From: an uncultured Pseudomonadota bacterium
Lineage (GTDB): Bacteria > UBA10199 > JACPAL01 > GCA-016699445
Reading direction: 5' to 3'
DNA: 34,561 nt
NCBI GenBank assembly: GCA_964637745.1
Contig: CAZWYB010000002.1
Coordinates: forward strand, 1 to 34,561
Shown here: positions 7,015-34,334 of the stretch, in pieces
How the letters are laid out: each line of letters begins with the position of its first letter
How positions within the stretch are numbered: position 1 is the first letter of the stretch
Notes under the pieces: generated by a model
What the model was told of the DNA's origin: nothing
What the model saw: the letters and a program-made list of their open reading frames with translations, nothing else
Databases searched by the model: none
Made by a program: the position numbers and the translations under genes

Positions 7015-7120
7015 GAGTCCCCCTTGTGTCGGGAGACTTAAATAGCAAGTACCATGCCATGACTCACAAAAAACATACATTTATAAGTATTTAATTTTAT
7101 TAACTATTTTATATGTAAGC

Positions 7121-7169
7121 CACAAAAATTGGTAACAACATGGTCAAATAAAACACATGTTGTTACCAA
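7121..7169 (-). terminator. Rho-independent terminator after the TolB-like gene
   Basis: On the minus strand a perfect 14-bp stem (TTGGTAACAACATG / CATGTTGTTACCAA; 7156-7169 and 7129-7142) encloses a 13-nt loop and is followed by TTTTTGTGG. It sits 9 nt after the stop at 7178. Confidence 0.7.
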
Positions 7170-7177
7170 AAAGAGAG

Positions 7178-8506: not shown

Positions 8507-8530
8507 CTCAATTAAGCTCCTTTTTTATCT

Positions 8531-10948: not shown

Positions 10949-11074
10949 GAGAAACTCCCCCCGGCTTGTGTTGAATAGGAATTATCGGCGAACTCACCGA
11001 CACCGGTTTCGTTTCTAATGGACATTTAAACAAATCTTATCATGAAAATGAGGACTTGCGGGTCTTTATTCCGT

Positions 11075-14662: not shown

Positions 14663-17171
14663 CGCAGTGGAATTTGAATGTATAATTGGTGGTCGGCGGC
14701 GTGCGGTCCTCCATGGCGCACCAGCCATTCACGCAGGTTTGCCCGGCTCCGCAACCCGAATCGCAGGTGGAATTCGTCGATCGCCAATAATGCCCGATGA
14801 GGGTGCACGAAAACTGATCGCCCCAGTCGTCGTCCTGCCCCCCTCTATGGAAGTCAGCAGCCATCGTGCCGTCGAGAGAAGGTTCGAGGTTCGGCTGCTG
14901 GCTGACTGTCGGAGAGCCCTTGTCGCAGGCGGGTTCGATGTGGGTCAGGTTCGTCGCATGCCAATGGAGGGTGGCGGTGACGTGAACGTCCGAATCGTCA
15001 TTGCAATCGCCACCGTCGCCGTTGACCGTATAAAAACCCGGCCCTTCGACATACTCAACCGTAAGCGTCCCCGGCTGGGGCGGCGGGGTCGGAAAGGGAG
15101 CGTAGATGTCGTTCGCAGCCGGAAGAATGGAGCCATCGAGATCCTTCACGACGAACTTATAGCCCGTGCAGGGACTGTTGTTCCTGGGGAGCTTGACGTT
15201 TTCAAGCTTCAGGGTCGAACCGAAGACGCTGACGTCTCCGTTGTTCCCCGTGGGCAAAGCGCCTTTCCAAGGGAAAATGTTGAACACCCCCGAGGTACCG
15301 CAAACGTTGAACTTGTTTCTGTCGAAGGCCTGGATCTCGAGAGACCCAACCCAAGGAACGTCTTTTTGCGCGACCTGATCGTAGTTTCCGGAATTATCGT
15401 CCCTCTTCTTGCTGATCGTGGCCTTGCGCAGGACGCCTCCCGAAAAGGAAAGTTTGCCTTGCTTGCTGCACTGATTCCAATTCCCGCAGGCGTTCGCCGC
15501 CCCGTTCGAGCAATCACAATGCCCCTCATTCCCGTCGAGAGCTCCGTTCTGGAATTGAGGGTATCCGGAACTGGGAGGATCCAACTCCACTTTGTAAGTT
15601 GCATCCTTGGAATCAGCGATACCTAATCCCGTCGCCCAGAATTCGATAACCTGGCTTTTGCTGTTCAAAGGACAATTCATCGTAAAAGACGCCAGATTTC
15701 CAAGCTTATCCGGAGTGTTTCCCGTCGGTGGCTCGCAACCCATGGGGGGCATGATCGGCACCGAAATGTTTTTCCCCGTGGCTGTCACTCGGATCTTCGG
15801 CGCATCGGTCTGTACATCGACGTTTGCGGTGAACGTCACGGGATCCACATCCACGGGATCCGAGTCCACCGCCTTCTCCAAGGTTCCGGCCTTCACATAG
15901 AGATGAAACTTCAATTTGTCCGCCAAAACCCGCGTATAGACAAACCCGCTCTTGACGAAGTGACCGGCCGCGTCCTTGGTCGTCATCACGCAAGCAGGAG
16001 GTTGATCACAAAGAAAGCAGGGCGTCGGCGGCGTGTAGCCGTGGCAATTTGAGCCGTCGTCTTTGCACTTCACCGCCGAATCCATATAAGTCTTCACCGC
16101 ATCATACGGGGCCGTTCCGGAAGTCATATCGCCCCCCAAGTTGGCCGCATTGGACTCGTTGCCGTTCACCAAAAGATACCGCGTATGCCCCAGCCCCCCT
16201 GCGAACATATCGTCGGGCTTGCCCTTGCATTCATCGCCCGGCGTGCCGCCGTCTATCGTAATCCGATAGAAACCGTCCGACCAGATCTGCAGATCGGTAA
16301 TGTCCTTGGCGTTGACCCCCGTCACGTTCCAGCTCACCTTGACCAAGCCCAGCCGCGTGTCGAATTTCTTATCGACGGTGAGGGTCGCATCAAAGGTCCC
16401 CAAAGGCTCGCAGGTCCCGGCGGTACAAGTCGTTTTTGACGAACAATCCGCATCGCTGGTACAGGACTGGGCCACGCAATGTCCTGTCGGAGAGCAGGTC
16501 GTCTTATCCCCCGTCGTACAATCCGCGTCCGTCACGCACTCCAAATCCACGCAGCTTCCCGCCTTGCATTTCTTTCCCGTAATGCAATCCGCGTTCGTCG
16601 TGCACGCCACGGGGCCGGCCGGCGCTGGCGTGCAGGTCCCGGACATGCATTTGTCGCCTGTAGGACAATCGGTATCGCTGGAACAGGTCGCCGTAGAACC
16701 CGTGCCGCCCGTTCCTCCCGCGGCGATCACGCACGAGCCACCCTGAAGGACTTCTCCGGGCGGGCAAGACGTCGTTTGCTGCGTCGGGGGCTTGATCGTG
16801 AATTGATCCGCAAGGATGGTCCTATGGCTGTCGTCGCAATTACCGCCTCCGCAGCAAAAAAGAGTCCCCGTCCCCTGGATCGACGAGGGCATCTGGATAT
16901 CGACGGGCGTATCTTTTGAGTTTGAGGAATCGGGACATTGATCCAAGTAAAATTGCTGTTTGTTCTTTTCGAAAAAGACCGTGCAATTATCGGGGCAGTC
17001 CTTGAGGTTGCATTTGACGGTCGTTCCGACGGCGGCCTGATTGGCATCGCAGGTCGTCAGCGCGCCGAGGTTTTTTGTACCCTTCCCTCCACCACCGCCA
17101 CCTCCCCCACCACCGCAGGAGCTAAGGAGCAAGAGACCGACGAAGAGAGGAAGGATGGCTGGACGGCCCAT
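14625..17171 (-). CDS. Cysteine-rich lipoprotein, paralog C (function unknown)
   Basis: ATG 17171 has AGGAGG 7 nt upstream (the track ORF starts at 17192). The lipobox LSSC is followed by a 10-residue poly-Gly run. About six 4-Cys modules lie at 16410-16766. The family C-terminal motif is present but interrupted by one extra Cys module. Confidence 0.85.
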   Translation of the reverse strand: MGRPAILPLFVGLLLLSSCGGGGGGGGGGKGTKNLGALTTCDANQAAVGTTVKCNLKDCPDNCTVFFEKNKQQFYLDQCPDSSNSKDTPVDIQMPSSIQGTGTLFCCGGGNCDDSHRTILADQFTIKPPTQQTTSCPPGEVLQGGSCVIAAGGTGGTGSTATCSSDTDCPTGDKCMSGTCTPAPAGPVACTTNADCITGKKCKAGSCVDLECVTDADCTTGDKTTCSPTGHCVAQSCTSDADCSSKTTCTAGTCEPLGTFDATLTVDKKFDTRLGLVKVSWNVTGVNAKDITDLQIWSDGFYRITIDGGTPGDECKGKPDDMFAGGLGHTRYLLVNGNESNAANLGGDMTSGTAPYDAVKTYMDSAVKCKDDGSNCHGYTPPTPCFLCDQPPACVMTTKDAAGHFVKSGFVYTRVLADKLKFHLYVKAGTLEKAVDSDPVDVDPVTFTANVDVQTDAPKIRVTATGKNISVPIMPPMGCEPPTGNTPDKLGNLASFTMNCPLNSKSQVIEFWATGLGIADSKDATYKVELDPPSSGYPQFQNGALDGNEGHCDCSNGAANACGNWNQCSKQGKLSFSGGVLRKATISKKRDDNSGNYDQVAQKDVPWVGSLEIQAFDRNKFNVCGTSGVFNIFPWKGALPTGNNGDVSVFGSTLKLENVKLPRNNSPCTGYKFVVKDLDGSILPAANDIYAPFPTPPPQPGTLTVEYVEGPGFYTVNGDGGDCNDDSDVHVTATLHWHATNLTHIEPACDKGSPTVSQQPNLEPSLDGTMAADFHRGGQDDDWGDQFSCTLIGHYWRSTNSTCDSGCGAGQTCVNGWCAMEDRTPPTTNYTFKFHCDDDGFHNDGHTP

Positions 17172-17297
17172 ATCAAGACCTCCTGAAATCAACCCCGGGT
17201 AGTTGTTTTCGGCATGTTACTGGCATGCAGTTTCGTCATCGGTAATTTAAGATGTCATCTTACCAGAACCGAAGGTGGATGAGTGATATTTTTTCAC

Positions 17298-19703
17298 TTA
17301 ATGCCTCGGATGGACTGCGCAGTTGTCATCGTTACCAGGGCATTCTTCCGAGCGCGTTCCAAGGCCGAGGCGTCCATGTCGGAATGTCGGCTCATGATCC
17401 CAACAACTGAACCAAAAACAGCTATGGGACATGACGCAAATTCTTGCGTCACAGTCGGAATATCCATAGGGAAGGGATACGTCGGGATACGAGACAGGAT
17501 CCCACGATTCGCAAACGAGTTGGCAATTCCTTCCCTCGGCTATCTGCCGGTCATCGATGGCGCCCGACCTCGTTTGATAGGTGGCGACGCCGTCGGTTTC
17601 GGAGGGATAGGAAATCGTGTGCCCGCAGGTGGAATACAGCCGTTTGCAATTCTGCGCGTTCGACCAATTCCAATGGTAACGCCTGGCATAAAGCGTGCCC
17701 CAGTTGTCCGTGTTGTCGCATTGATTGCCGCCGGGCCAACCGCCCCCGGCTCCGCCGTTATGGTCGGGGGTATATTGGCAGGCGGCGTTTTGCCACTCGG
17801 AGTTGTAATGCGAGACGGCCGCTGTCCATCCCCGATCCATCGGGTCGGCGCCTCCCTCCAACGACAAATGCGGAGGGAAAGGAAAACTTTTCAGCGACGG
17901 ATCCGACTGAAACAGACTTCCATCCGTATCATGTCCAACTATGGCATATTGCGTGCAATGGTGGGTCCTTCCAAGCCGGACCGGGCCGATCGGAGTGGTC
18001 GTGATCGAGGTCACCACATCACCGGCTCCACACTCCTCGGGAGGCCCATACCCTCCCCTCGTTCCAACCGGAGCAAAGGCCTTCACCTGAAGATCGCGGA
18101 CCCATGGGACAGTCACCGAGCTCTCATCGTGCCAGGATCCGTCATCCATGAGCTTGGAGACCGTACACGCGCGAGTGACGGAGGCATAGAAAGTGAGATC
18201 GACGGGCGTGTTGCAACTTTCCCACCAGTGATCCAAGGATGTCCCGGAGCACGACAACACGCCTCCCGGATCTCGCGCGCCGGGCGCGTAAATTTCGCCG
18301 CCGAGTCTTAAATTCGGTTGAGGGGCCTCGCAGTGGATACGGTATTGTTGCAACACGTTATCGGCGGTGTCCCCCATGGCCATAGCAACGATACTGACCG
18401 TCGCATCCTTTTGAAACGGACAACTTCCCGTGATGCTCGCCCGTCCGTCACTGGAGACGTCGTTCACCATGGTCGTCACGAGGCATCCCATGACCGCCAG
18501 GCGTTGAACAGTATGGGTCGCGTTCGCCTGCAACTCGATCTTGGGCTCGCGATCGCTCACCGTAACGCTAACGCCCGAGAACGACGGACGCTCCAGCGTG
18601 AATTCATGCGTCGTCGACCGCCATGTACCGTCCTCTCCTTGCGCCACCAGGGTATATTTCCCAGGCCACGCCAACTTGACGTAGAACGTCCCGCTCGCGG
18701 CCGACAGCTCCACGCGGCAGAAGGTGGCCGATCGATGCGCGTCGGGATGCCAATCGCGGCAGTTGCCGTCGGCTTCCACGCAGGCAGTCCCCGAATTATA
18801 AGGATGGTACGTGGCATAGACGGGCGCCCCTTCGACCAACGCATGCCCGTTCGGATCGGTCACGAGGCCTTCGTGCGTCGTACCGGTCACGGTCTCGCTG
18901 CAATCCGCCCTCGATGTGGGGAAATAGACGTATTTGGCCCGGAGGGTTCCTCCGCCTTGAATCTGGTAATTGACGTGTGCGAACCCGTAAAGATCGCGAA
19001 TGGCGTCGCTGCCGTCCAAAGAAACGCCGAAGGTCGTCGGCGTCGAAGACGCCTCGCGCACCCCGCAGGTGTGATCGGAGCGGCACACGTTGCCGCCCGT
19101 ACATTCGCTGTCGGCGTGGCAAGAGGTCGGCGTGGGTGTCGGCGTCGTCCCCGCCACACAGCTTCCACTGTGACAGACACGGCCGGACGCGCAATCGGCG
19201 TCGTCCACGCAGGTCGGCGTCGTCGCGCCGGGCGTGCTGTCCGAGGGGCGGATCTCCCCTCCTCCGCCTGCGGAGCACGTCCCCGCGCTGCAGGTCTGGC
19301 CGGCTCCGCAGTCGGTATCGGAGGAACAGGTTGAAGCCGCCCCGGGAACAATCTGGAAATTACGAGCGATCACAAAGGGCCCTTCCGTTCCGCGTCTCCA
19401 AATGAGATCGCCGGTGCCCGTCTGGGCGGGAAGCGTCAACGAAAGGCCGCGGTCGTTTTGATTGCAGTCGACAAAAAATTCCATCCGGCCTCGATCCAAA
19501 AAACAGCGGGAATCGGCGTCGAAATTGTCTTGAGGGCCGCATTGAATCGTCTGACCGGGTGTTCCCGTCGGAGGACACGAAGTCGCCGTTCCTTGAGGGG
19601 ATGTCGACGCCCCGCCGCTTTTTTTGGACGACGCGCAGGCGGCAAGACTGACGATGAATAAAAGAGCCAAAACGGCCCGGAATCTCGCAAGGTGGCACGC
19701 CAT
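17298..19703 (-). CDS. Cysteine-rich lipoprotein, paralog B (function unknown)
   Basis: ATG 19703 starts the ORF and the lipobox is LAAC. The N-terminal domain (CPPTGTPGQTIQC...FFVDC...GDLIWRRG..GPFVI) is clearly similar to that of 19824-22139. Three 4-Cys modules lie at 19065-19328. Confidence 0.85.
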   Translation of the reverse strand: MACHLARFRAVLALLFIVSLAACASSKKSGGASTSPQGTATSCPPTGTPGQTIQCGPQDNFDADSRCFLDRGRMEFFVDCNQNDRGLSLTLPAQTGTGDLIWRRGTEGPFVIARNFQIVPGAASTCSSDTDCGAGQTCSAGTCSAGGGGEIRPSDSTPGATTPTCVDDADCASGRVCHSGSCVAGTTPTPTPTSCHADSECTGGNVCRSDHTCGVREASSTPTTFGVSLDGSDAIRDLYGFAHVNYQIQGGGTLRAKYVYFPTSRADCSETVTGTTHEGLVTDPNGHALVEGAPVYATYHPYNSGTACVEADGNCRDWHPDAHRSATFCRVELSAASGTFYVKLAWPGKYTLVAQGEDGTWRSTTHEFTLERPSFSGVSVTVSDREPKIELQANATHTVQRLAVMGCLVTTMVNDVSSDGRASITGSCPFQKDATVSIVAMAMGDTADNVLQQYRIHCEAPQPNLRLGGEIYAPGARDPGGVLSCSGTSLDHWWESCNTPVDLTFYASVTRACTVSKLMDDGSWHDESSVTVPWVRDLQVKAFAPVGTRGGYGPPEECGAGDVVTSITTTPIGPVRLGRTHHCTQYAIVGHDTDGSLFQSDPSLKSFPFPPHLSLEGGADPMDRGWTAAVSHYNSEWQNAACQYTPDHNGGAGGGWPGGNQCDNTDNWGTLYARRYHWNWSNAQNCKRLYSTCGHTISYPSETDGVATYQTRSGAIDDRQIAEGRNCQLVCESWDPVSYPDVSLPYGYSDCDARICVMSHSCFWFSCWDHEPTFRHGRLGLGTRSEECPGNDDNCAVHPRH

Positions 19704-19823
19704 GAGTTTACCTCAGTGTACCACAGCCTGGAGCGGGGCTGTAGGAGTTTAGATTGTCAAAATTGGGGGCGTTTGAGTTATCGGCTGACAAGACCTGGCC
19801 GGTTGCGTCCTCTGTAAATCGCT

Positions 19824-22139
19824 TTATTGCCAGGCACATTGGGCGGGCGGCTCAAAGTTGGGATTCCGTTTCGTCTGTAAACCGTTACCCGATCCCGTCG
19901 CCTTGCCGTCAGGACCATCCTCGTAACAACTGCACTCCCACTGTTTATGTGGGATGGACACCTCTACCCTCGTTCCGTCGTAGTAGACGGCCCAGAACTG
20001 GCAGGAGAAATCCTGTTTCCAATCGCTCCAATATTTGTTTCGGATTCCATCGTCCGTAATATTGGCGGAAGGCACCGGGATATCGGTCGAAAGGATACCG
20101 CTCTGAGGTCCGTAATTCTTAGGGTCGGGCTTATCCCATTTCGAATAAACGATGATGTCAATGTCCGGCGTCTTTTCTCCCCCCAGGGCCAAACGATCAT
20201 AGGTCGCAATTTCACAATGGTACGCAAAATAACTGAGATGCTGTCCGCTCCAGGACCAAGCAATCGATGAGGACCCGTCGAAACAGGAATGTGTATCCTT
20301 CAGGTTGAGCGTCGGACTCAGGGGAGAGGGAGAAATGCTGAAAGAAGGATTATAAGGATGGCTCACGGGGTCGCTTTGATACGTCTTCCCGTCATAATCC
20401 TTGGCGACGGCGACCCAGCCCGTATGGCCGTAATCCCGATCCGCGACGAACTCCCCATTCCCGTTTTTCTTGGTCACTTCCTCCTTGAGGATCCAAGGAG
20501 CGGACTGCGGCTTGTAATTCGGAGTGAAGAGCGTTTTCTTGGCCATGCTCTTATTTGCGGTCGTGGTACGAACGGAAGAAGGATCCGTCGCTGCATAAAC
20601 GGATAACGAATCCACCCAGACAACTTCCTTGGAGGCAGCCGGTTTGACGGAGACGCCGTCCTTCTGAATGTCATAGGTACGGGAAACAGTCGGATGGAAA
20701 TTGATGGTTCCCGGATAATCACAATTATCCGGATCGTTCGCGGCTCCCGTCCCGGAACACGTTCCCCCTCCCTCGTTCAAGGTCACCGCCGGTTTGTGGA
20801 GGACCACCGAGAACGTATGGGACACGGCATTCTTGGGATCCAAACCGGAAGCAGCGATACCGATCGTCATGTTCGTCGAGAGCAAGCAGGTCGCAGAAAG
20901 CGTGCCGGAACCGTCTTTTGACAACGAGTTGAGCGTGTATTGAATTGAGGGGCAACCGGTCACCGCCGGAACGCTGGAGACGCCCGTATAGGTCGCCTGC
21001 AGGAGGACCTTCGGCTCGTTATAGGACAGGGAGACGGCGGCGTCGACGGTCGGGATATCCGGCGTCAACGTCAGCTCCGCGGTCTTCGTCGTTCCCGCCT
21101 CATCCGTCGCCACGATCACGAACTTTCCGTTTGCAACCAGGAGCCGCGAGGCGAAATCGCCTGCCGCCAGGGGCTTCCCGTTTGCGTCGACCGGATTCAT
21201 CAGACACGTCGGCGCCGCAGGCGCACCGGCTGCCGGCGGGGAAAATCCCTGATAGCAATCATTGGCGTTGACGCACGGCTTGCCCGTGGTCAGACCTTTC
21301 GACTCGGCCTCCTGAAAATTCGTGGACGGCTGCGCCGGCGGAGTGGGAAGAGGTCCAAAATCCCCTCCTCCGGATTTCGCCGGATTGACCGTGAGCCATG
21401 ACGCCGTTTTATCGTCGCCGCAGTTGGTATCCTTATCGCTCCGGTTCCAGGGGCCGACCAAGGCCACCGATTTCAAACCCTGTCCCCCTTCGACGTGAAA
21501 CGTAAAGGTGTAAAGGCCCAATCGGGTTTTGGTCTCTTCTTGGGCCTCGAGAGTCACTTTGAGTTCTTGAGGGGTTCCCGTCGTCGGCGAAGTCGTCCCG
21601 GTCGAACCGGACCCGGATGGAGAAGGCGTCCCGGAAGCCACACACGTTCCGGAGGTCTTGTCGCAAATCCTGCCGCTGGCGCAGTCGGAATCGCTCAAAC
21701 AATTCACCGTGCTCTCCGTGGGAGTCACGGGTTGTCCTCCGGAAGCGGCGGGAGCCGAAGCCGAAGCGGAGGCCGGAGCGATCGTGATCCCCTTTTGAAT
21801 GACGAAGGGCCCCGCCGACCCTTGGCGGAAGATCAAGTCCCCCTTGCCCGCCAGGGCCGGAAGCGTCACTTGAAGACCTTTATCGGTTTCCTGGCAATCG
21901 ACGAACAGCTCTCTCTGCCCCTGATCCAAGAAACACTGGCTGTCGCTCGTGAAGTTGTCGGGTTTCGCGCAGAGGATCTGTTCGCCCGGCGTCGCCGTCG
22001 TGGGACAGGCCGAGAGCGATGCCGTGCCGCCACCGACGGGCGAAGGCCCCTTGTTGGCGGAACCGCCGCCGCAGGAGGCGGCAAACACCAGCACACACGT
22101 CAGGACCAAGACTTTTTGAAACGGGCTATAAAATCTCAT
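19824..22139 (-). CDS. Cysteine-rich lipoprotein, paralog A (function unknown)
   Basis: ATG 22139 starts the ORF and the lipobox is AASC. The N-terminal domain is homologous to paralog B. One 4-Cys module lies at 21642-21701. The C-terminal motif is FSCQFWAVYYDGTRVEVSIPHKQWEC. Confidence 0.85.
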   Translation of the reverse strand: MRFYSPFQKVLVLTCVLVFAASCGGGSANKGPSPVGGGTASLSACPTTATPGEQILCAKPDNFTSDSQCFLDQGQRELFVDCQETDKGLQVTLPALAGKGDLIFRQGSAGPFVIQKGITIAPASASASAPAASGGQPVTPTESTVNCLSDSDCASGRICDKTSGTCVASGTPSPSGSGSTGTTSPTTGTPQELKVTLEAQEETKTRLGLYTFTFHVEGGQGLKSVALVGPWNRSDKDTNCGDDKTASWLTVNPAKSGGGDFGPLPTPPAQPSTNFQEAESKGLTTGKPCVNANDCYQGFSPPAAGAPAAPTCLMNPVDANGKPLAAGDFASRLLVANGKFVIVATDEAGTTKTAELTLTPDIPTVDAAVSLSYNEPKVLLQATYTGVSSVPAVTGCPSIQYTLNSLSKDGSGTLSATCLLSTNMTIGIAASGLDPKNAVSHTFSVVLHKPAVTLNEGGGTCSGTGAANDPDNCDYPGTINFHPTVSRTYDIQKDGVSVKPAASKEVVWVDSLSVYAATDPSSVRTTTANKSMAKKTLFTPNYKPQSAPWILKEEVTKKNGNGEFVADRDYGHTGWVAVAKDYDGKTYQSDPVSHPYNPSFSISPSPLSPTLNLKDTHSCFDGSSSIAWSWSGQHLSYFAYHCEIATYDRLALGGEKTPDIDIIVYSKWDKPDPKNYGPQSGILSTDIPVPSANITDDGIRNKYWSDWKQDFSCQFWAVYYDGTRVEVSIPHKQWECSCYEDGPDGKATGSGNGLQTKRNPNFEPPAQCAWQ

Positions 22140-24928: not shown

Positions 24929-25374
24929 CAATCTGTCCTGGCCTTCCCGGCCTTCCTGGCGGCTTTCTCCGCCAAAGCCAAAAGCTCGTTGGTCTTCCGC
25001 CACATCCGGTCCCGGTCCTTCTTCTTTTTATCCCGGTATCCCAGGAGGTGGAGCAGGCCGTGAATGGCCAGGATGATCATTTCCGTCCGGGTCGCATGGC
25101 CCTGTTCCCTTGCCTGACGTCTCGCGGTGTCCGCGGAGATGAGAACATCCCCCAAAACTCCCCTTTCCTTCATTTCGAACGCGATCACATCCGTTGCATA
25201 ATCGTGGCGAAGATATTTTGCGTTATAGCGCCGGATCGCCGCGTCCGAAACGAAAAGAAAATTGACCTCCTGATCGTCGACACCCAAAGACGCGATGATC
25301 TTTCGCAAGGAGGCGCGCAGGCCCTTGACGGGGATTCTCACGGACGGATTCTGATTTTGAATCGTAATCGTCAT
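24928..25374 (-). CDS. ybeY: rRNA maturation endoribonuclease YbeY
   Basis: 148 aa with the zinc-binding motif HGLLHLLGY. Its start overlaps the upstream kinase stop (ATGA). Confidence 0.9.
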   Translation of the reverse strand: MTITIQNQNPSVRIPVKGLRASLRKIIASLGVDDQEVNFLFVSDAAIRRYNAKYLRHDYATDVIAFEMKERGVLGDVLISADTARRQAREQGHATRTEMIILAIHGLLHLLGYRDKKKKDRDRMWRKTNELLALAEKAARKAGKARTD

Positions 25375-26921
25375 GAAGAAGAGACTTTCGGCCCTTTTGA
25401 AGGGGACGCTGGGAGATCCGCACGGAAAGTCGCTGTGAAAAGCGCCCCCTTCCCCGGTTCGCTTTTCGCGGTGATCGTCCCCCCATGGTTCTGAAGAATC
25501 AGCCTGCAGACGGCGAGCCCCACGCCCGAGCCTCCCGTCTTCCAGACGCCCCGTTGCGTCGCCTGGCCGAACATTTCAAAGATCTTCTGATGATCCTCGG
25601 GGTTGATCCCGACTCCGTCGTCCTCGACCTCGATTGTGATTTGCTCTTTTGAAGACGCAAGCGCGACGTGAATCTTTCCTTTTTGATCGGTGAACTTGAC
25701 GGCGTTGCTCAGCAGATTGATCATCACTTGCTTGATCTTATCCGCATCGCAGACCGCGTAAAGAGGGCGATCGGGAAGTTCCAGCGTGAATTGAATTTGC
25801 TTCCCCGCAATATCGGGCTTCATCACCTCGCAGGCCTCCCGGACGACTTCCGCCATATCGGCCCTTTCGAAGACCATCTGCATCTTTCCCGCCTCCAGGC
25901 GCGAGTAATCGAGGACATTGTTGATGAGGCGGGCCAGCCGGTCGATGTTCCTCTTCGTAATCGTAAGCGTCTCTCTCTGGCCCTCGTTGATGGGCCCGTC
26001 TATGCCGTCCAAGAGGATGTCGATTCCGGACTTCATGGAAGACAGCGGGGTCCTGAGTTCATGGGACACCATGGAGACGAAGGACGACTTCATCTGGTTT
26101 ACGCGCTGCAGCTCTTCGTTCGCACGCCTCACTTGCTCCTCGGTGTGCTTCCGTTCCGTGATGTCGACGACGGAACTGATGACGAAGGCCCCTTCATCGG
26201 TTTCCATGGGATTCAAACCGATCTCGACCGGAAATTCGCTGCCGTCCTTCCTCCGGCCGAAGAGATCGCGTCCGGCGCCCATCGCGCGGGTCTGGGGATC
26301 TTGGAAAAAATCACGACGGTATTCGGGATGCCTCGCCCGGAACCTTTGAGGGACCATCATGTCGATGGAGCGTCCGACAAGCTCCTCCTTTTCATATCCG
26401 AACATCTTCTCGATCTGCGAATTGGCAAGGATGATCTTCCCCTCGTCGTCCACCATGATCATGCCGTTGGGAGCCGCTTCGAACGTCATTCGGAAACGCA
26501 TCTCGCTGCGCTTCAGTTGCGCCTCGTTCTTGATCGCCTTCAATTGGGCGGGGTTTGGAAAAGAAAGGGCGTCGGGAAGAAACGGCCAGATCGCGAAGGC
26601 CGTCGCGATGGAAACGAGCGCCGTCAACGCCTTAACGACCCCTTCGAGCCGGTAGGCTCCGTTCCACGTGGTCCAGACGGCCATAATGTGCGTGGTCCCA
26701 CAGGCAAAGATGAACGTGGCGAAGAGAACGAAGATCCAGCGGAAGGGAACGTCCTTCCGTTTCGTGATGAAGTAAAACAACGTGAGAGGGATCGAGTAAT
26801 AGGCGAGCGTGATGACGATGTCCGACGCCACATGCAGCCAAAGGATTTCCGGCTTCCAAAAATAGCAATGCCCGTGGGGCATGAAGTCGGCCGTAAAGAG
26901 ATTTTTGAGGAAATCGATCAT
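25371..26921 (-). CDS. Sensor histidine kinase: ethylene-binding-domain-like 3-TM sensor, PAS, HisKA, HATPase
   Basis: The kinase boxes are present: H-box HELRTPLSS, N-box NLLSNAVKFT, G1 DDGVGI and G2 GGSGVGLA. Residues 30-115 align without gaps across helices 1-2 to Arabidopsis ETR1 residues 21-106 as remembered. The ATGA overlap with the upstream gene stop supports the start. Confidence 0.88.
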   Translation of the reverse strand: MIDFLKNLFTADFMPHGHCYFWKPEILWLHVASDIVITLAYYSIPLTLFYFITKRKDVPFRWIFVLFATFIFACGTTHIMAVWTTWNGAYRLEGVVKALTALVSIATAFAIWPFLPDALSFPNPAQLKAIKNEAQLKRSEMRFRMTFEAAPNGMIMVDDEGKIILANSQIEKMFGYEKEELVGRSIDMMVPQRFRARHPEYRRDFFQDPQTRAMGAGRDLFGRRKDGSEFPVEIGLNPMETDEGAFVISSVVDITERKHTEEQVRRANEELQRVNQMKSSFVSMVSHELRTPLSSMKSGIDILLDGIDGPINEGQRETLTITKRNIDRLARLINNVLDYSRLEAGKMQMVFERADMAEVVREACEVMKPDIAGKQIQFTLELPDRPLYAVCDADKIKQVMINLLSNAVKFTDQKGKIHVALASSKEQITIEVEDDGVGINPEDHQKIFEMFGQATQRGVWKTGGSGVGLAVCRLILQNHGGTITAKSEPGKGALFTATFRADLPASPSKGPKVSSS

Positions 26922-29047
26922 AGACGGCGGACGTTCTTGGGAGGAATCTTCGAAATCTCCTTGGGAACCGCTTCCTTGAGGGAATCCTCGCGAAGCGGTT
27001 TTGAGTGCGAATATTTATCGGCTTCGGCCGTGTCTTCCTGAATCGGCGAGACCGCTTTATCGCGGGCGGCCTTCTCCGCCTCGTCGGGAGGGTATTCGAT
27101 CCTCTGGTGATAGATCCCCATCAGAACCCGAAGAAAGCTTTTTGCGATCGTGTGAAGGTCCTTGAGCGTCAGCTCGCACTCGTCCAGCTGGCCGTCGATG
27201 AAGTTCTTGTTGATCATGTTGCGGACGACCTCCTCCAAACGGGCGGGAGAACGGTCCTTCAGGGCCCGCGTCGCCGCCTCCACGGTGTCCGCCAAAAGGA
27301 TGATGCCGGCCTCGCGCGTCTGCGGCTTGGGGCCGGGATAGCGGTAGTCGCGCTCCTCGACCACGTGCATCTCCGGATCCTCCTTCTCCTTCGCCTTGTT
27401 GTAGAAGTAGGTGATCAGCTTGGTGCCCTGATGCTGGGGGATGATGTCCGTGATCCGCTGGGGGAGCTTGGCCTCCCGCGCCATCTCCAGGCCGTCTTTG
27501 ACATGCGAAGAGATGATCAGGGCGCTCATGGAAGGCGCGAGGCTCGCGTGCTTGTCTTCCGCCCCGGCGGCCGATTGATTTTCGATGAAATACGTCGCCT
27601 TCTTCATCTTGCCGATGTCGTGAAAATAGGACGCGACGCGGGCGAAGAGGGAATCGGCGCCGATCGCCTCGGAGGCCGCCTCCGCCAACGTCCCGACCAT
27701 GTGGCTGTGATGATAGGTCCCCGGCGCGCGGACGATCATCTCCCGGAGCAACGGATGATTCAGGCTTCCGTATTCCAGGAGCTTCACCGGCGTCAGGTAG
27801 TTGAAGAGGGATTCGAAGACGGGCATGATGATCATGACGAGCACGGCACTCAACACGCCGCCCGCGAAGGCCAGGATGGCGCGAAGGAAGAGCTCTTCGG
27901 CGTTGGTTGCGCCCGTGAGGCTCGTGACGTTCATCATATCGAGTCCCAGACTGACGACGGCGTTGAGCGCGCCCAATTCAAGCCCCACGCGAAGAAGCTG
28001 CCCGCGGGTGCGCACGCCCGACATGAAAGCGATGCTCAAGACGCAGCCCACGAAATAATACAAGGTATAGTTGAGACTTCCCTGCGCGAGGATGCCCGCC
28101 ATGGCCGCGCTCACGGGGGCGAAAAGCATGGCCATCGGAAGCGGCAGCACGAGCCTGACCATCATCGTTCCGAAGGCGATCGGAATGAGCCCGTAAAAGG
28201 AGTTCATGGGGATGTCGACCGGCAACAGGCCGCGAATGGCCCCGAACGTGAAGAGCGAGATTCTTTCGACAAGGATCAAGGTGACGAGCAAGACGCCCAA
28301 GAAAACCAGATCCCGCGGACGAAGCTCCAACTTCGGAAAGGCCCGGTTGAGGACGAAAAAGAAGGTGACAAGAAAAATGAAGATGAAGAAAAAGGTCCCG
28401 ACGAACCGGGTGCGGCTGAAGGCCCTGTTCTTTTCCTTCCGGATCCCCTCGATCACCTTGAGGTGCCAAGGCTCGAAATGATCCCCGCTTCGGATGATGG
28501 ACTCTCCGGCTTGCACCTTGATCACGACGGGTTTGACGCTTTCCACGGCGTCTTCCTGAAGCTTTTTCGTCTCCGACTCGTTATAGATGAGCGTCGGCCT
28601 GATCTCGTTTCGTTGATTCGACTTCGCCCAACGCGCCTGCGCCTCGGCAACGGACAAGATAGTGCTGAAATCCTTCAAAATCAGCTTCGGCGCGTCGGGA
28701 TGCCTCAAGAGGTGGATCTGAAGGCCCCGGTCCTTCCAGGGGTCCAATTCGCTCCGATTTCCAATGATCTTTTCGCGGCCGAAGCCGGCATCGTCCCAAT
28801 CATAGACGGGCAGGACCGATTTCATGGCCTCCTGCTTCAAGTGCTCGGTCGTCTCTTCGTCGAAGATTTCGTAGTCCTTGTCGGCACGGATGTCCTGGTG
28901 GGCGATGCGCCCGATTTCAATGCCCGTGGGCAGCTGTCCTCCTGAAAAATTGATGAGGAGGGCCACCACCAAAGACAGGATCAAGAGACCGACGCCCTGG
29001 AACAACAACGCATGCTGTCCGACCAGTTCTTCAATGTTTTTTTTCAT
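26918..29047 (-). CDS. 7TM-receptor HD/HDIG phosphohydrolase (YqfF/PgpH family)
   Basis: A large N-terminal extracytoplasmic region is followed by 7 TM helices and an HD domain (HHSHMVG, YFHDIGKMK). It occupies the conserved position between phoH and ybeY. Confidence 0.85.
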   Translation of the reverse strand: MKKNIEELVGQHALLFQGVGLLILSLVVALLINFSGGQLPTGIEIGRIAHQDIRADKDYEIFDEETTEHLKQEAMKSVLPVYDWDDAGFGREKIIGNRSELDPWKDRGLQIHLLRHPDAPKLILKDFSTILSVAEAQARWAKSNQRNEIRPTLIYNESETKKLQEDAVESVKPVVIKVQAGESIIRSGDHFEPWHLKVIEGIRKEKNRAFSRTRFVGTFFFIFIFLVTFFFVLNRAFPKLELRPRDLVFLGVLLVTLILVERISLFTFGAIRGLLPVDIPMNSFYGLIPIAFGTMMVRLVLPLPMAMLFAPVSAAMAGILAQGSLNYTLYYFVGCVLSIAFMSGVRTRGQLLRVGLELGALNAVVSLGLDMMNVTSLTGATNAEELFLRAILAFAGGVLSAVLVMIIMPVFESLFNYLTPVKLLEYGSLNHPLLREMIVRAPGTYHHSHMVGTLAEAASEAIGADSLFARVASYFHDIGKMKKATYFIENQSAAGAEDKHASLAPSMSALIISSHVKDGLEMAREAKLPQRITDIIPQHQGTKLITYFYNKAKEKEDPEMHVVEERDYRYPGPKPQTREAGIILLADTVEAATRALKDRSPARLEEVVRNMINKNFIDGQLDECELTLKDLHTIAKSFLRVLMGIYHQRIEYPPDEAEKAARDKAVSPIQEDTAEADKYSHSKPLREDSLKEAVPKEISKIPPKNVRRL

Positions 29048-30625: not shown

Positions 30626-30654
30626 TTGACTTTGTCCCGTCGGATGGAGAAAAT
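30626..30654 (+). promoter_or_regulatory. Candidate sigma-70-type promoter for the riboswitch leader
   Basis: TTGACT (30626-30631), a 17-nt spacer, then GAAAAT (30649-30654). This would put the transcription start about 30-40 nt before the aptamer. It is a pattern match only. Confidence 0.3.
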
Positions 30655-30694
30655 CTATCCAACTCGAAGTACAAAGGAGAACACCGAGTTCTTG

Positions 30695-30765
30695 AAAAAG
30701 GCAAACCCGTCGTGAGGCGGGGACGCAAAGCTTCTGGTCTCATTCGCCGACGTTAAAGAGGCGGA
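30695..30765 (+). promoter_or_regulatory. GEMM-I (c-di-GMP-I class) riboswitch aptamer
   Basis: The RNA reads AGGCAAA-CCCGUC-GUGA-GGCGGG-GACGCAAAGCU. This matches the remembered V. cholerae Vc2 core GGGCAAA-CCAUUC-GAAA-GAGUGG-GACGCAAAGCC position for position, with a 6-bp stem capped by a GNRA tetraloop. A second hairpin follows (GCUUCU...AGAGGC). The outer boundaries are approximate. Confidence 0.8.
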
Positions 30766-30817
30766 TGAGGCAGCAGGGCTGCCAAGGGAAGAAACGACTG
30801 ATCGTTTTCTATGGCAG

Positions 30818-30858
30818 CCCATCTCTCGGCAAAAGGCCGGAGGTGGGTTTTTTATTTT
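30818..30858 (+). terminator. Intrinsic terminator forming the riboswitch expression platform
   Basis: CCCATCTC-t-CGGC aaaag GCCG-GAGGTGGG gives 12 bp with one bulge and one G-U pair, followed by TTTTTTATTTT. The T-tract ends 18 nt before ATG 30876. Confidence 0.8.
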
Positions 30859-30875
30859 GGACAAACGGAGGCCTT

Positions 30876-33518
30876 ATGAACATCTCGTTGAAGACGGTGC
30901 TCTTACCGATCGTCATCTTCATCAACTTTCTTGGGGCCTCGGTGTCCTTTGCGGCGAGTCTCGGAACCGGAAGGGTGACTGATGTGACGGCCGGTGATAA
31001 CGGGTGTAAGACGGTCAGCGGCGATTCAACGCAGTTCTACAACGTCCAGCAATCAAAAACCTATAAGGTCACCTTGAGTAACGTAACGGAGTGCTCAGGC
31101 GGCACGATTGGCATCCTGGTCAAGAATACGGACAACGGCAACCAATGCCTGACGGCATCATCGGGATCCTCCTCCGGCACCTATACTTTTACGGTCACGA
31201 TGCCGCCGGACGCCTGCAATACCTATCCGATCCAGTATTGCGTCACCGCGTGCAAAGCCTCCACGGGTTTCTTAGCCACCCGGTCCGATGGAGGGGGTTT
31301 TGGCGCCCATCTGAGGGCCGGTAATTTTGATGCGGATTGCAATTATCTTTCACAGGATACGGATTGTACGGGCCATCAAGACGGCGATCCCTGTGACGAC
31401 GGTAACGCCTGTACAACGGATGATCAGTATCAAAACGGAATCTGCGTCGGAAGCCCTCTAAATTGCGATGATTCCAATGCTTGCACCACGGATAGATGCG
31501 ATCAAACAGCGGGTTGTATCCATACCGACGTCGTGTGCTTGACCGATGACAACGATGCCTGCACGACAAACGGCTATTGCGACAAACAAACAGGGTGCGT
31601 CAACCCGACCCCCATCAGTTGCGATGATCAGGACGTTTGCACCCTTGATAGCTGCAATCCCGCCACCGGATGCCTCAATGTGAAGGATACCTGCGACGAC
31701 CATATTGAATGCACGGCGGATAGCTGTGTCCAAGGACAAGGGTGTCTACACGTTCCTGAGAACAGTTCCTGCGATGACAAGAATCCTTGCACTAAGGATA
31801 TTTGCGACCCCCAAGTCGGCTGCCGACATGAGCCAGTTGAGGTGGGAACGGTTTGTCGCGAGGCGGCCGGGGATTGCGACGTCGCCGAGATGTGCGACGG
31901 TACGGGCGCGCCCTGTCCTCAAGATTCTTTCAAGCCGGTGGATGCGGTTTGCCGTCCTGCAGCCGGGGAGTGCGACAAAGCCGAGACATGCACGGGGTCT
32001 TCGCCCCTCTGTCCCGCGGACGCGGTAAAGCCCGCGGAGACGTCCTGCGGCGATGACGGCAATGTCTGTACTCGTGACATCTGCGACGGCAGCAGCGTCA
32101 GTTGCACGCACCCAGCCGGCAATGGAGGGACCGTCTGCCGTCAGGCCTCTGATCTTTGCGATCAGAATGCGCTCTGTACGGGGACAAGTTCCGTTTGTCC
32201 TTCCAATCCTTTTAAACCCGCCAGCGTCGTTTGCCGAGGGGCTCACGGCGTTTGTGATACGCCCGAAAGTTGCACGGGGTCCTCGGCGGCCTGTCCGGCG
32301 GATGCGTTTCTACCGAATACGGTGACGTGTCGTCCCTCGGCCGGTGTGTGCGACACGCCCGAATCCTGCACGGGCAACGGCCCCGATTGTCCGAACGATG
32401 TCTTTAAACCTTCGACGACGGTCTGTCGTCCCGCGGCGGGGGAATGCGACGTGCCGGACAACTGCTCCGGGCTGGGAGCCGCCTGCACCGATGACGCTAA
32501 GAAGGCTCCCAACACAGCTTGCACCGATGACGGCATTTTCTGCACGGCTGATCTCTGCGATGGGACGCACGACGCCTGCCAACATCCGACGGCGCCGAAG
32601 GACGGCGTAGTTTGCGACGACAGCAACGCATGTACTCAGACGGATCTTTGCCAAAGTGGCTCCTGCGTCGGATCAAACCGCATCCCGGGCGTTGTCTCGG
32701 GAATGAAATACTATGATGCCAACGCCAACGGCCAATGGGATTCAGGGGAGGTCGGGATCGGATCTTGGAGTATCTCTTATAGCGGCCCTGTCTCGGCTAC
32801 AGAGCTCACCAATGCCGGCGGTCTCTTCTCAAATTCCTTGGCAAACGGGGCGTACACCTTTAAGGAAATGACTTCTTCGGGATGGCAACAGACCGGAAAC
32901 CTGATCAATCAGACTTCCGTCAGTCAGACCGGAACCCCCCTCGGCAACGCCTCCTGCCAACTCAAAGGAGATAAGTCCTATTCGTGTCAGGTGGCCGAGT
33001 GCAACACGGTGGCGGGGGTCGATTTCGGCAACCTCTGTCTCGGCTCCGGAGGCGGTCTGACGCTGGGCTTCTGGTCGAACAAGAACGGACAGGCTCTTTT
33101 TTCAAATAGCGATCTGGCGGCGATGGTCGGTTTAAATCTCCGCAATGCGAACGGCAGCGCATTTGATCCAACAAGTTACACCGCGTTTAGAAACTGGATT
33201 CTGAGCGCTACGGCAACGAATATGGCCAACATGCTGTCGGCCCAATTGGCGGCGATGAAATTGAACGTCCGCCATAATTTCGTCTCGGGGAACGCCCTCA
33301 TCTACGCACCCGGCGCCAACAGCGCGAACGGCAACGGGTACGCGACGGTCAATGCCGTGATGGCCGAGGCGGACGCCTCCCTCGCGGCGAACGGGAATAC
33401 GGTCAAGTCGGACGCAACACGGTCCTACCAGGAGGCATTGAAAAATGCCCTGGACAACGCGAACAACAATAGGAATTTCGTTCAGGCGGGCCCTAACTCC
33501 TGCGGCCCACATCTTTGA
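30876..33518 (+). CDS. Secreted multi-repeat cysteine-rich protein (CTDC-like and disintegrin-like repeats, SdrD-B/Cna-B-like domain, unknown C-terminal domain)
   Basis: ATG 30876 has GGAGG 5 nt upstream and opens a classical signal peptide (MNISLKTVLLPIVIFINFLGASVSFAAS). The track ORF start at 30765 would read through the terminator. Confidence 0.85.
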   Translation: MNISLKTVLLPIVIFINFLGASVSFAASLGTGRVTDVTAGDNGCKTVSGDSTQFYNVQQSKTYKVTLSNVTECSGGTIGILVKNTDNGNQCLTASSGSSSGTYTFTVTMPPDACNTYPIQYCVTACKASTGFLATRSDGGGFGAHLRAGNFDADCNYLSQDTDCTGHQDGDPCDDGNACTTDDQYQNGICVGSPLNCDDSNACTTDRCDQTAGCIHTDVVCLTDDNDACTTNGYCDKQTGCVNPTPISCDDQDVCTLDSCNPATGCLNVKDTCDDHIECTADSCVQGQGCLHVPENSSCDDKNPCTKDICDPQVGCRHEPVEVGTVCREAAGDCDVAEMCDGTGAPCPQDSFKPVDAVCRPAAGECDKAETCTGSSPLCPADAVKPAETSCGDDGNVCTRDICDGSSVSCTHPAGNGGTVCRQASDLCDQNALCTGTSSVCPSNPFKPASVVCRGAHGVCDTPESCTGSSAACPADAFLPNTVTCRPSAGVCDTPESCTGNGPDCPNDVFKPSTTVCRPAAGECDVPDNCSGLGAACTDDAKKAPNTACTDDGIFCTADLCDGTHDACQHPTAPKDGVVCDDSNACTQTDLCQSGSCVGSNRIPGVVSGMKYYDANANGQWDSGEVGIGSWSISYSGPVSATELTNAGGLFSNSLANGAYTFKEMTSSGWQQTGNLINQTSVSQTGTPLGNASCQLKGDKSYSCQVAECNTVAGVDFGNLCLGSGGGLTLGFWSNKNGQALFSNSDLAAMVGLNLRNANGSAFDPTSYTAFRNWILSATATNMANMLSAQLAAMKLNVRHNFVSGNALIYAPGANSANGNGYATVNAVMAEADASLAANGNTVKSDATRSYQEALKNALDNANNNRNFVQAGPNSCGPHL
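31392..31844 (+). repeat. Six tandem ~25-aa repeats CDDxNxCTxDxCxxxxGC (Dictyostelium CTDC / Myxococcus Cys-rich-repeat-like)
   Basis: Read from the translation (aa 210-360 of the track ORF). Three more copies are interspersed downstream, up to 32672. Confidence 0.8.
31845..32495 (+). repeat. Seven tandem ~30-aa repeats CRxxxGxCDxxExCxGxSxxCPxDxxxP (ADAM/disintegrin-like)
   Basis: Read from the translation, for example VCRPAAGECDKAETCTGSSPLCPADAVKP and TCRPSAGVCDTPESCTGNGPDCPNDVFKP. Confidence 0.8.
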
Positions 33519-33554: not shown

Positions 33555-34334
33555 CTAAAAAGTTGGATTCGCCGGAAGAGAGGCCGGAACGGACAAATCC
33601 CCTGCAGACGCGAAGGGAAGGAAAGTAAGGTCGTCGATTGAGAGCCCTGCCCCAAGGCACTCTGCGAGATCCGCTCTGTTTCCGGTCGAGATCAAGGCAC
33701 AGACGTCGGAGAAACTTTTTTCAAAACCGAACGAGGTAACATTTTGTGCGTCGACAGTCCCATTCCAAAAGTCTTGATCCTCAAGGAACCGGTTGAAAAA
33801 ATGAAGGGTGCCATCCGGGACATCGTTTAAGTCGTCGCTCGCCCGCAAAGCCGTAGACGCAATGAGGGTCTTGAGAGCGCTGTCCTCCGGACCTTTCTGT
33901 GTGAAAAAAGAATGGCCGGAGACAGACTCTCCGCTTTCAGCATGAAAGTGAGCGAAGAGCTCGGACGATTGATCCTGCGTGTTCTGATAATCGTAGGTCT
34001 GAACGATGGTGACGCCTCCGAGTTCCGTGCTGAAAATGGCCAGCTGTCCGGTCCCAGAACTGGCCGTGGTCGGGAAGGAGGAAAAAAACCCAGCCAAGCG
34101 CGTCTTCGTTATCCCCTGATCCTGGACCCAAATACGAAAACAGATCGGAAGGAAGGCGGTATTGCCGGAGCACCCAAGCTTGCGACCGTTCGAGTCCGGG
34201 TAATCGGAAAAATCAATCTTGACGTCCAAGGTCCCCGTCCCGGGAGGCTCCTTCAGAATCCTTCGCGTGAGTGTCCTTGTCTGCGCGCTCGCCGGAATAT
34301 TGAATTGACGAAGCGGGCTGATGAAGGCCGTCAA
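33555..34334 (-). CDS. Hypothetical protein
   Basis: A 259-aa ORF beginning at TTG. The frame is open upstream to 34463 but has no ATG, GTG or TTG there. I saw no signal peptide and no recognisable motif. It is convergent with the repeat protein gene. Confidence 0.45.
   Translation of the reverse strand: MTAFISPLRQFNIPASAQTRTLTRRILKEPPGTGTLDVKIDFSDYPDSNGRKLGCSGNTAFLPICFRIWVQDQGITKTRLAGFFSSFPTTASSGTGQLAIFSTELGGVTIVQTYDYQNTQDQSSELFAHFHAESGESVSGHSFFTQKGPEDSALKTLIASTALRASDDLNDVPDGTLHFFNRFLEDQDFWNGTVDAQNVTSFGFEKSFSDVCALISTGNRADLAECLGAGLSIDDLTFLPFASAGDLSVPASLPANPTF

Follow-up and report, generated by a model that had tools for sequence, protein, structure and literature searches.

Predicted secreted protein with a cysteine-rich stalk of CTDC-like and disintegrin-arm-like repeats, encoded downstream of a candidate c-di-GMP riboswitch in an uncultured Pseudomonadota bacterium

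Cysteine-rich tandem repeats in TraA of Myxococcus xanthus have been proposed to form a rigid stalk that presents a head at the cell surface (PMC3325183). TraA is composed of a PA14-like head, a stalk of TIGR04201 repeats and a MYXO-CTERM tag. The CTDC proteins of Dictyostelium (PF00526) include extracellular and signalling proteins, for example PsiA/DicA1 (PA14 plus repeats); secreted members carry tandem arrays of a 24-residue, four-Cys repeat behind a head, and the Cna-B-type B repeats of staphylococcal SdrD and UafA form a Ca2+-dependent stalk. In the arm of ADAM and venom disintegrin-like domains, the motif CD(X)2(E/D)XCXG(X)4C(X)2(D/N) forms Ca2+-site III, where a buried, rigidifying Ca2+ that resists ethylenediaminetetraacetic acid is coordinated through the side chains of Asp, Glu/Asp and Asp (PMC4885070). 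Two reports on Clostridioides difficile describe the adhesin CD2831 and the protease Zmp1 as being under riboswitches for c-di-GMP (cyclic diguanosine monophosphate) (PMC6447587, PMC6366702). Here, a gene with likenesses to each of these systems is described. It occupies positions 30876 to 33518 of a 34,561-nucleotide stretch of DNA (the window; the whole of contig CAZWYB010000002.1) from an uncultured Pseudomonadota bacterium. RF-2 of this lineage shares at most 76% identity with any entry of the collection compared, and its nearest named relatives are MAGs labelled ‘Deltaproteobacteria bacterium’.

The reading favoured here, to which a probability of roughly 0.6 is assigned, is that the product of this gene is a non-enzymatic protein of the surface or extracellular matrix, secreted via Sec, made of head, stalk and base and placed under a c-di-GMP riboswitch. 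Following export via Sec, a lineage-specific N-terminal domain of ∼140 residues (the head) would be held at the far end of a rod. The stalk, ∼430 residues comprising 15 four-Cys mini-modules (nine CTDC-type and six arm-type), would be stiffened by disulfides and by one buried Ca2+ in each of five of the six arm-type units, and is not expected to bind integrin. The base, a β-sandwich with an EF-hand-like loop and a helical domain closed by a Cys721-Cys876 pair, would attach or assemble the protein at the cell envelope or matrix. Expression would be set by c-di-GMP through transcription termination, at a class I riboswitch followed by an intrinsic terminator. An adhesin or matrix role is thus suggested by architecture and regulation.

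The open reading frame as listed spans 30765..33518 (+). The favoured coding sequence is 30876..33518 (+), giving 880 residues plus a stop codon. ATG 30876 was taken as the start because GGAGG lies 4 nucleotides before it and a signal-peptide-like N-terminus follows it; ATG 30765 falls inside the predicted riboswitch aptamer. By inspection, the signal peptide has Lys in the n-region, a hydrophobic core and an SFA end before AS. The product is identical to protein P0001 in an NCBI-derived collection. An initial annotation of the window, made from the sequence alone, had proposed the same gene and its secretion, and both stand. The parts of the protein are as follows.

30867..30871 (+): Shine-Dalgarno sequence GGAGG, read from the sequence, 4 nucleotides 5' of the ATG.
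30876..30953 (+): predicted signal peptide, residues 1-26, judged by inspection; cleavage site MNISLKTVLLPIVIFINFLGASVSFA followed by AS.
30954..31364 (+): N-terminal (head) domain, residues 27-163, with 7-8 Cys; family not recognised.
31365..31823 (+): six tandem CTDC-like four-Cys units, residues 164-316 (Pfam, Cys spacing).
31854..32021 (+): disintegrin-arm-like units R1 and R2, residues 327-382 (Pfam, Cys spacing); Ca2+-site-III consensus complete in both.
32046..32105 (+): CTDC-like unit 7, residues 391-410 (Cys spacing).
32136..32495 (+): disintegrin-arm-like units R3-R6, residues 421-540 (Cys spacing, PDB sequence search, AlphaFold2, Foldseek).
32520..32666 (+): CTDC-like units 8 and 9, residues 549-597 (Cys spacing).
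32685..33041 (+): SdrD-B/Cna-B-type β-sandwich, residues 604-722 (AlphaFold2 and Foldseek; Pfam below cut-off).
33042..33515 (+): C-terminal helical domain, residues 723-880, ∼160 residues; conserved, with seven helices in the AlphaFold2 model.

In a Pfam scan of the whole protein, Dicty_CTDC (PF00526) scored 74.2 bits against a cut-off of 27 (five stretches, E = 6.7e-21) and Disintegrin (PF00200) scored 74.7 bits against a cut-off of 35.1 (six stretches, E = 1e-20). No reprolysin (M12B), ADAM_CR, PA14 or protease domain was found among the Pfam matches, the HExxH motif is absent, and the NCBIfam scan returned no family at E ≤ 1. The best Dicty_CTDC stretch covers profile positions 1-24 of 24, and the repeat is the 24-residue four-Cys unit in tandem. 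Cys spacing and regular expressions resolved 15 four-Cys units in total. Nine are CTDC-like, starting at residues 173, 197, 221, 249, 273, 299, 391, 549 and 580, the first being degenerate with three Cys; six are disintegrin-like, starting at residues 327, 359, 421, 453, 485 and 517. Given these counts, the nine CTDC-like repeats of the initial annotation are retained and its seven disintegrin-like repeats are reduced to six. Its view that no metalloprotease is attached agrees with the scan, and the interleaving that it placed at 31845-32672 is recovered at 31854-32666. A ‘CTG’ stretch at residues 155-173 was considered as a further disintegrin-like unit and rejected; its spacing is wrong and Pfam did not detect it.

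CTDC-like unit 7 is linked to the arm-type unit that follows it by the junction C.HPAGNGGTVCR, which recurs in about 15 homologues. The conserved, recurrent junction of these homologues from CTDC-like to arm-type unit reads C.HPAGNAGTVCR. By comparison with the Dictyostelium CTDC proteins, the window protein is bacterial, its CTDC-like units are interleaved with a second repeat type, the junction variant C.HPAGNAGTVCR precedes each arm-type run, and no PA14 head was detected. The logic of head, Cys-rich stalk and C-terminal base is shared with TraA. The repeat families are different, however, with no PA14 match and no NCBIfam match, a negative that covers TIGR04201 and MYXO-CTERM only if the release includes them.

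The second repeat type corresponds to part of a disintegrin-like domain. The best Disintegrin stretch aligns to profile positions 45-75 of 75, i.e. the last 31 (46-75 in the relative L017), and since the 24-residue units are spaced ∼32 residues apart, there is no room for the first 44 positions of the profile. A set of 1,481 bacterial units, drawn from the 119 best homologues, has a dominant period of 32 and the consensus C-R-a-a-A-G-v-C-D-V-A-E-t-C-T-G-s-S-a-a-C-P-a-D, with R1, G5, D8 (99%), E11 (95%), G15 (99%), P21 (98%) and D23 (90%) near-invariant. This consensus equals the Ca2+-site-III motif at all 17 residues and shares with the ADAM and P-III venom-enzyme domain the wider motif CRxxxxxCDxxExCxGxSxxCPxD. 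Within the window protein, the site-III motif is intact in five of the six units (at residues 334, 366, 460, 492 and 524); R3 has Ala in place of Glu.

Sequence comparison with phmmer against PDB sequences returned atragin (3k7l; E = 2.2e-5), RVV-X (2e3x; E = 8.1e-5) and ecarin. Approximately 21 of 40 residues are identical to atragin in FKPASVVCRGAHGVCDTPESCTGSSAACPADAFLPNTVTC. The identity to the venom enzymes extends to flanks other than Cys, with FK.A before the unit and F..N...C after it, and the start of the next unit, CR.saGvC, aligns with CQnnqGyC in their Cw segment. An AlphaFold2 model of residues 383-548, built on 44 repeat segments, had a predicted local distance difference test (pLDDT) score of 96. 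The top 42 PDB matches of this model in Foldseek were P-III venom metalloproteinases, ADAM22/10/17 and disintegrins only. The global E-values were modest, the best being 5e-3. Local fits to the venom and ADAM structures were 1.2-2.7 Å across 42-62 residues, with tight superpositions on 3k7n (42 columns, 1.2 Å, 48% identity) and 3k7l (62 columns, 2.4 Å, 40% identity).

By contrast with these likenesses, the remaining parts of an ADAM-type module are lacking. The Ca2+-site-II consensus of the Ds subdomain, XCGN(X)3EXGEXCD, has no match anywhere in the protein. No RGD-type tripeptide occurs in the loops of R1-R6 (REAAGD, RPAAGE, RQASDL, RGAHGV, RPSAGV and RPAAGE), and the sole KGD, at residue 697, is located in the sandwich domain. 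Disulfides of ADAM and P-III proteins comprise three within the Da subdomain plus links to Ds and Cw, Cys468-Cys499 among them (PMC4885070). As each bacterial unit has just four Cys and lacks a partner in Ds or Cw, its pairing cannot equal the ADAM Da pattern. Where an ADAM or venom protein has a single domain, the window protein iterates 31 of its 75 positions six times with a 32-residue period, without Ds, site II, the cysteine-rich ‘hand’ or the M12B protease. Given the absence of these elements and of an RGD-type loop, the unit is best described as homologous to one sub-segment of the ADAM domain and not as a disintegrin domain. The disintegrin-like signature reported in the initial annotation is thus borne out in sequence and predicted fold, but for the arm part alone. 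The loop of ADAMs that corresponds to that of the units is buried and unavailable for binding (PMC4885070). By analogy, the arm-type unit would be a structural rather than a binding element, and it probably does the same job as the ADAM arm, that of a rigid segment stabilised by Ca2+ and disulfides.

A likeness of this kind could in principle arise by chance, or from constraints shared by Cys-rich Ca2+ hairpins, with no common ancestry. The units are short (24-32 residues), Cys, Gly, Pro and Asp dominate their conserved positions, the best Foldseek E-value is just 5e-3, and the disulfide pairing must differ from that of ADAM Da. Nevertheless, the identity runs into non-structural flanks and on to where the next unit begins, all 17 residues of the Ca2+-site motif are present, and a Pfam E-value of 1e-20 is accompanied by 42 top fold matches that all belong to one protein superfamily. 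Convergence is therefore regarded as improbable.

The distribution of the repeats bears on a second explanation, that they were acquired recently from an animal or amoeba and retain a eukaryote-directed function such as binding of integrin-like receptors. A word-limited homologue search scored 8,000 candidates, of which at least 2,637 were significant. The named homologues, from metagenome-assembled genomes (MAGs) and genomes, are nearly all bacterial (Candidatus Binatia, Limnocylindrales, Sorangium, Archangium, Myxococcota and ‘Deltaproteobacteria’). Both repeat types occur together in many of the 120 best matches, with up to 20 arm-type or up to 32 CTDC-type copies, and the dozens of partner domains include subtilase, beta-helix, VWA, metallophosphoesterase, lamin-tail, Big_1, F5/8-C, dockerin and DUF11. 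Given this bacterial abundance, co-occurrence and variety of partners, the two repeat types constitute a common bacterial stalk kit, and the window protein is one more ordinary representative of a bacterial class of PF00200 plus PF00526 repeats that is large and already annotated.

Recent transfer draws some support from an identity of ∼50% with the disintegrin-like domains of venom metalloproteinases across 40 residues, from the definition of both Pfam families on eukaryotic proteins and from a single match, P0046, that derives from a eukaryotic transcriptome. Against it stand the bacterial spread of the units, their restriction to 31 of 75 profile positions with no Ds, site II, RGD-type loop or M12B protease, the burial of the equivalent ADAM loop, and an ordinary bacterial contig with a Shine-Dalgarno sequence, a riboswitch and uniform composition. 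The window protein carries no sign of recent eukaryotic transfer, and this explanation is considered very improbable. The ‘eukaryote-like modules’ of the initial annotation are accordingly an artefact of Pfam family naming. The strong match P0046 (EukProt) has ten arm-type repeats joined to legume-lectin-type domains and could be a genuine eukaryotic member or bacterial contamination. The literature found mentions bacterial ‘disintegrin’ Pfam matches merely in passing. A 2026 preprint on cysteine-rich repeats and gene transfer was set aside; it concerns a six-Cys repeat ending in CC and makes no mention of disintegrin or CTDC.

At the C-terminal end, the predicted base was modelled by AlphaFold2 as two domains with a pLDDT of 94.4. 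The best structural matches of the first domain, a β-sandwich, were UafA (3irp; E = 4.1e-6) and SdrD (10ps, 4jdz and 8vdk; E = 2e-4 to 8e-4), with UafA and SdrD B-region matches spanning E = 4e-6 to 1e-3. SdrD_B (PF17210) scored 18.6 and 21.3 bits in the window protein, below the cut-off of 29.7, and passed in the homologous domains of L076 and L022 (43 and 40 bits). An EF-hand-like loop, DANANGQWDSGE, with the pattern DxNxNGxxDxxE, lies at residues 614-625. The SdrD-B/Cna-B-like domain of the initial annotation is thus upheld by fold, though sub-threshold in Pfam. Unlike the staphylococcal proteins, the window protein has a single sandwich copy, no LPXTG and no A-region ligand-binding domain, and its sandwich is always followed by the helical domain. 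The sandwich Cys at residues 694, 704 and 709 (32955..33002) are not conserved in the family, where mostly gaps, Val/Ile and gaps, respectively, are found.

The helical domain has neither a model in Pfam or NCBIfam nor a fold match in the PDB, and the matches of a profile search of the PDB, all to helical proteins designed de novo, were spurious. The initial annotation had likewise left the C-terminal region unassigned, at about 200 residues where ∼160 (723-880) are now delimited. In an alignment of 121 sequences, Ser788, Gln790 and Arg849 are invariant, Trp733, Asn735 and Asn863-865 are near-invariant, and Cys721 and Cys876 are co-conserved in 104 sequences. Given that this pair is co-conserved and brackets the helical domain, a Cys721-Cys876 disulfide is likely. 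A Cys-Gln thioester domain (GN[LV]C[LV]G plus the invariant Gln in MLSAQ) was also considered. This idea was dropped, as the Cys co-conservation suggests a disulfide, Foldseek gave no thioester match to the helical part, and short matches to Spy0125 (67-69 columns) fit the sandwich.

The domain is widespread. A word-limited search with the tail alone found at least 416 proteins, an exhaustive search of 1.84 billion cluster representatives found 1,512 with the helical domain, always at the very C-terminus, and GTDB representative genomes yielded 380 stretches with the base module across many bacterial phyla. The module was also observed, at 44-49% identity, in MAGs labelled Methanospirillum, Methanomicrobiales, Methanoregulaceae, Methanoregula and Nitrosopumilaceae (L022, L023, L032, L044 and L068), so that it would cross the boundary between bacteria and archaea unless these contigs are misbinned. 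The closest full-length relatives (P0014, P0020, P0057, P0010 and P0028) have the sandwich and conserved tail in common and differ in their N-terminal domains. A typical family member has 410-550 residues and consists of signal peptide, variable head, sandwich and helical domain. Cys-rich repeats are present in only one of 75 module genes of representative genomes, that of L017 (Byssovorax). Judged by this layout, the window protein is a stalk-extended version of the sandwich-plus-helical family. In P0010 and P0028, a Gly-Cys/transmembrane/Arg-rich sorting tail like that of TraA (JGI name, TIGR03382 family) directly follows the helical domain, an arrangement that puts the base beside the cell; no such tail is present in the window protein.

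Regulation of the gene was assessed from its leader, in which the following elements were identified.

30626..30654 (+): weak σ70-like promoter candidate TTGACT-17-GAAAAT, with 9 of 12 matches; not more frequent than in shuffled sequence.
30691..30787 (+): predicted c-di-GMP class I (GEMM-I) aptamer; best model the c-di-GMP-I-GGC variant (Rfam RF03167).
30775..30822 (+): alternative hairpin pairing the aptamer 3' strand (GGGCUGCC) with GGCAGCCC; −25.9 kcal/mol.
30818..30858 (+): intrinsic-terminator-like hairpin CCCAUCUC..GAGGUGGG, inner CGGC/GCCG; U tract at 30848-30858.

The RF03167 match (70.9 bits, cut-off 59, E = 4.9e-15, model positions 1-80 of 80) ends 88 nucleotides ahead of the start codon and confirms the upstream cyclic-dinucleotide riboswitch that had been proposed; its ligand is predicted to be c-di-GMP. 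In its core the aptamer has CGCAAAGC, which it shares with the canonical class I aptamers at related loci. The consensus G of the GGC model (CGCGAAGC) is replaced by A, both here and in the aligned canonical class I aptamers, so that the GGC-variant assignment may rest on features other than that core position. All three GGC-assigned aptamers, those of the window (30691..30787 (+)), L054 (8720..8802 (−)) and L042 (5326..5405 (+)), read CGCAAAGC and not CGCGAAGC.

The alternative hairpin competes both with the aptamer and with the base of the terminator. The terminator hairpin (30818-30847) has a predicted stability of −20.4 kcal/mol in full and −11.2 kcal/mol once the competing hairpin takes CCC (three G-C pairs). 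Since the competitor uses the aptamer 3' strand, a folded, ligand-bound aptamer would favour the full terminator. The predicted polarity leans towards an OFF switch, with ligand-promoted termination, although the residual hairpin is still stable.

To place this arrangement in context, 80 related loci (∼790 kb) were scanned with Rfam and 11 c-di-GMP riboswitches were found; a strict regular expression for the aptamer recovered two of these 11 and was not used for counts. Six of the 80 loci have a c-di-GMP riboswitch immediately upstream of, and on the same strand as, the gene for the sandwich-plus-helical module, with the first ATG 19-296 nucleotides after the riboswitch. Four are class I (L016, L042, L054 and L076) and two are class II-GAG (L009 and L028), and the loci belong to Gemmatimonadales (two), Dissulfurispiraceae, Methylococcales, Limnocylindria and Acidimicrobiales. 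By a rough estimate from riboswitch density (a few per genome), chance would give fewer than one such placement. Cys-rich repeats are absent from all six of these relatives; thus, the regulatory link belongs to the C-terminal module and not to the repeats. The remaining five riboswitches lie nearby on the opposite strand. In L016 and L054, convergent genes for S8 subtilisin-like proteases (6844..8494 (−) and 6842..8802 (−), respectively) have class I riboswitches of their own, at 70.2 and 70.7 bits, and both convergent partners are, by prediction, c-di-GMP-controlled. The arrangement of a secreted surface protein and a neighbouring protease under c-di-GMP riboswitches in these two loci resembles that described for C. 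difficile in the reports cited above. The proteins and lineages are unrelated, and the window protein is without a sortase signal. In three Pyrinomonadaceae loci, the opposite strand carries a class I riboswitch at a distance of 2-2.5 kb downstream from the module gene (L036, 9125..9227 (−); L039, 8669..8795 (−); L078, 7745..7861 (−)).

The conservation of the helical domain and the company that it keeps raise a third explanation, in which the protein is a secreted enzyme or effector whose helical domain is catalytic or toxic, the repeats and sandwich serving as spacers and the riboswitch controlling the activity. The invariant Ser788, Gln790 and Arg849 and the near-invariant Trp and Asn residues would suit such a role, the helical domain is the only part conserved across the family, and the convergent neighbours in L016 and L054 are themselves riboswitch-controlled secreted enzymes. 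However, no enzyme family was matched in Pfam, NCBIfam or the PDB, in P0010 and P0028 the domain stands beside the sorting tail, as would suit an anchor or base, and N-terminal heads that vary are typical of a functional end that is presented. A secreted enzyme or effector is on balance considered unlikely.

Several observations count against the favoured reading of a non-enzymatic surface or matrix protein. Neither the head nor the helical base domain has a recognisable family or fold match in the Pfam, NCBIfam and PDB searches, and the binding role of the head and the anchoring role of the base are assigned from position alone; localisation, Ca2+ binding and function of the protein are likewise predictions. 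The protein ends four residues after Cys876 with no sorting tag and may therefore simply be released. Given its invariant Ser, Gln and Arg, the helical domain could instead act in catalysis or bind a ligand. Under an OFF switch, the protein would be made at low c-di-GMP, which is a poor fit for a component of the biofilm matrix and would disagree with simple induction by c-di-GMP, and a riboswitch is present in only six of 80 relatives. Finally, the four-Cys units, judged from the sequence, cannot equal the ADAM Da disulfide pattern, where Cys468 of the loop is bonded to Cys499, a residue beyond the unit.

The head itself (residues 27-163) gave no significant Pfam match, no PDB sequence match and no relative in the metagenome scan, and it does not resemble the N-terminal domain of L016, a relative linked to a riboswitch. 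Counting Cys164 as part of the first CTDC-like unit leaves the head with an apparent seven Cys. In the head and sandwich, certain cysteines may therefore be unpaired or paired across domains.

Further genes in the window encode other predicted extracellular and signalling proteins. At 13286..14728 (−) lies a bacterial homologue of vitamin K-dependent γ-carboxylase (HTTM, 270 bits; VKGC_lumenal_dom, 149 bits). It is a further animal-type enzyme of extracellular modification, and the genome has many secreted proteins rich in Cys. It adjoins three paralogous Cys-rich putative lipoproteins (49, 42 and 24 Cys) with lipobox-like N-termini and weak DUF7107 matches; the neighbours span 4888..13210 and 14625..22139 (−), and four more large open reading frames near the carboxylase homologue gave no Pfam match. 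Closer to the riboswitch-controlled gene are two signalling genes at 25371..26921 (−) and 26918..29047 (−), a histidine kinase with ETR1_N (ethylene-receptor-type, 137.8 bits) and PAS beside a 7TM-HD (PgpH-type) phosphohydrolase. Downstream and convergent, the open reading frame 33555..34334 (−) has 259 residues, a TTG start and no Pfam match and runs towards the contig end at 34561.

In the literature found, there is no description of the bacterial unit as the ADAM Ca2+-site-III segment, of the helical-domain family or of its recurrent coupling to two c-di-GMP riboswitch classes. A joint proposal may be advanced tentatively, as possible but doubtful in its entirety: that the base module is an undescribed secreted family brought repeatedly and independently under two unrelated riboswitch classes, and that the 32-residue unit is the building block of ADAM Da/Cw, the latter because, in the venom enzymes, the sequence that follows the unit can be aligned with the beginning of a second one. 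If this is correct, the helical domain would have a specific task in the c-di-GMP surface programme; it might, for example, anchor to a polymer of the envelope or matrix, or assemble one. The public label ‘Disintegrin’ misleads as to the function of a large and almost undiscussed class of bacterial stalk modules. Recognition of the unit as a Ca2+-site-III arm segment would give it a concrete structural role, that of a rigid rod stabilised by Ca2+ and disulfides, and would provide a handle on the origin of the ADAM disintegrin-like domain. The helical domain, as the conserved core of ∼1,500 protein clusters and with its gene behind a c-di-GMP riboswitch in at least seven lineages, is a candidate new output of c-di-GMP signalling.

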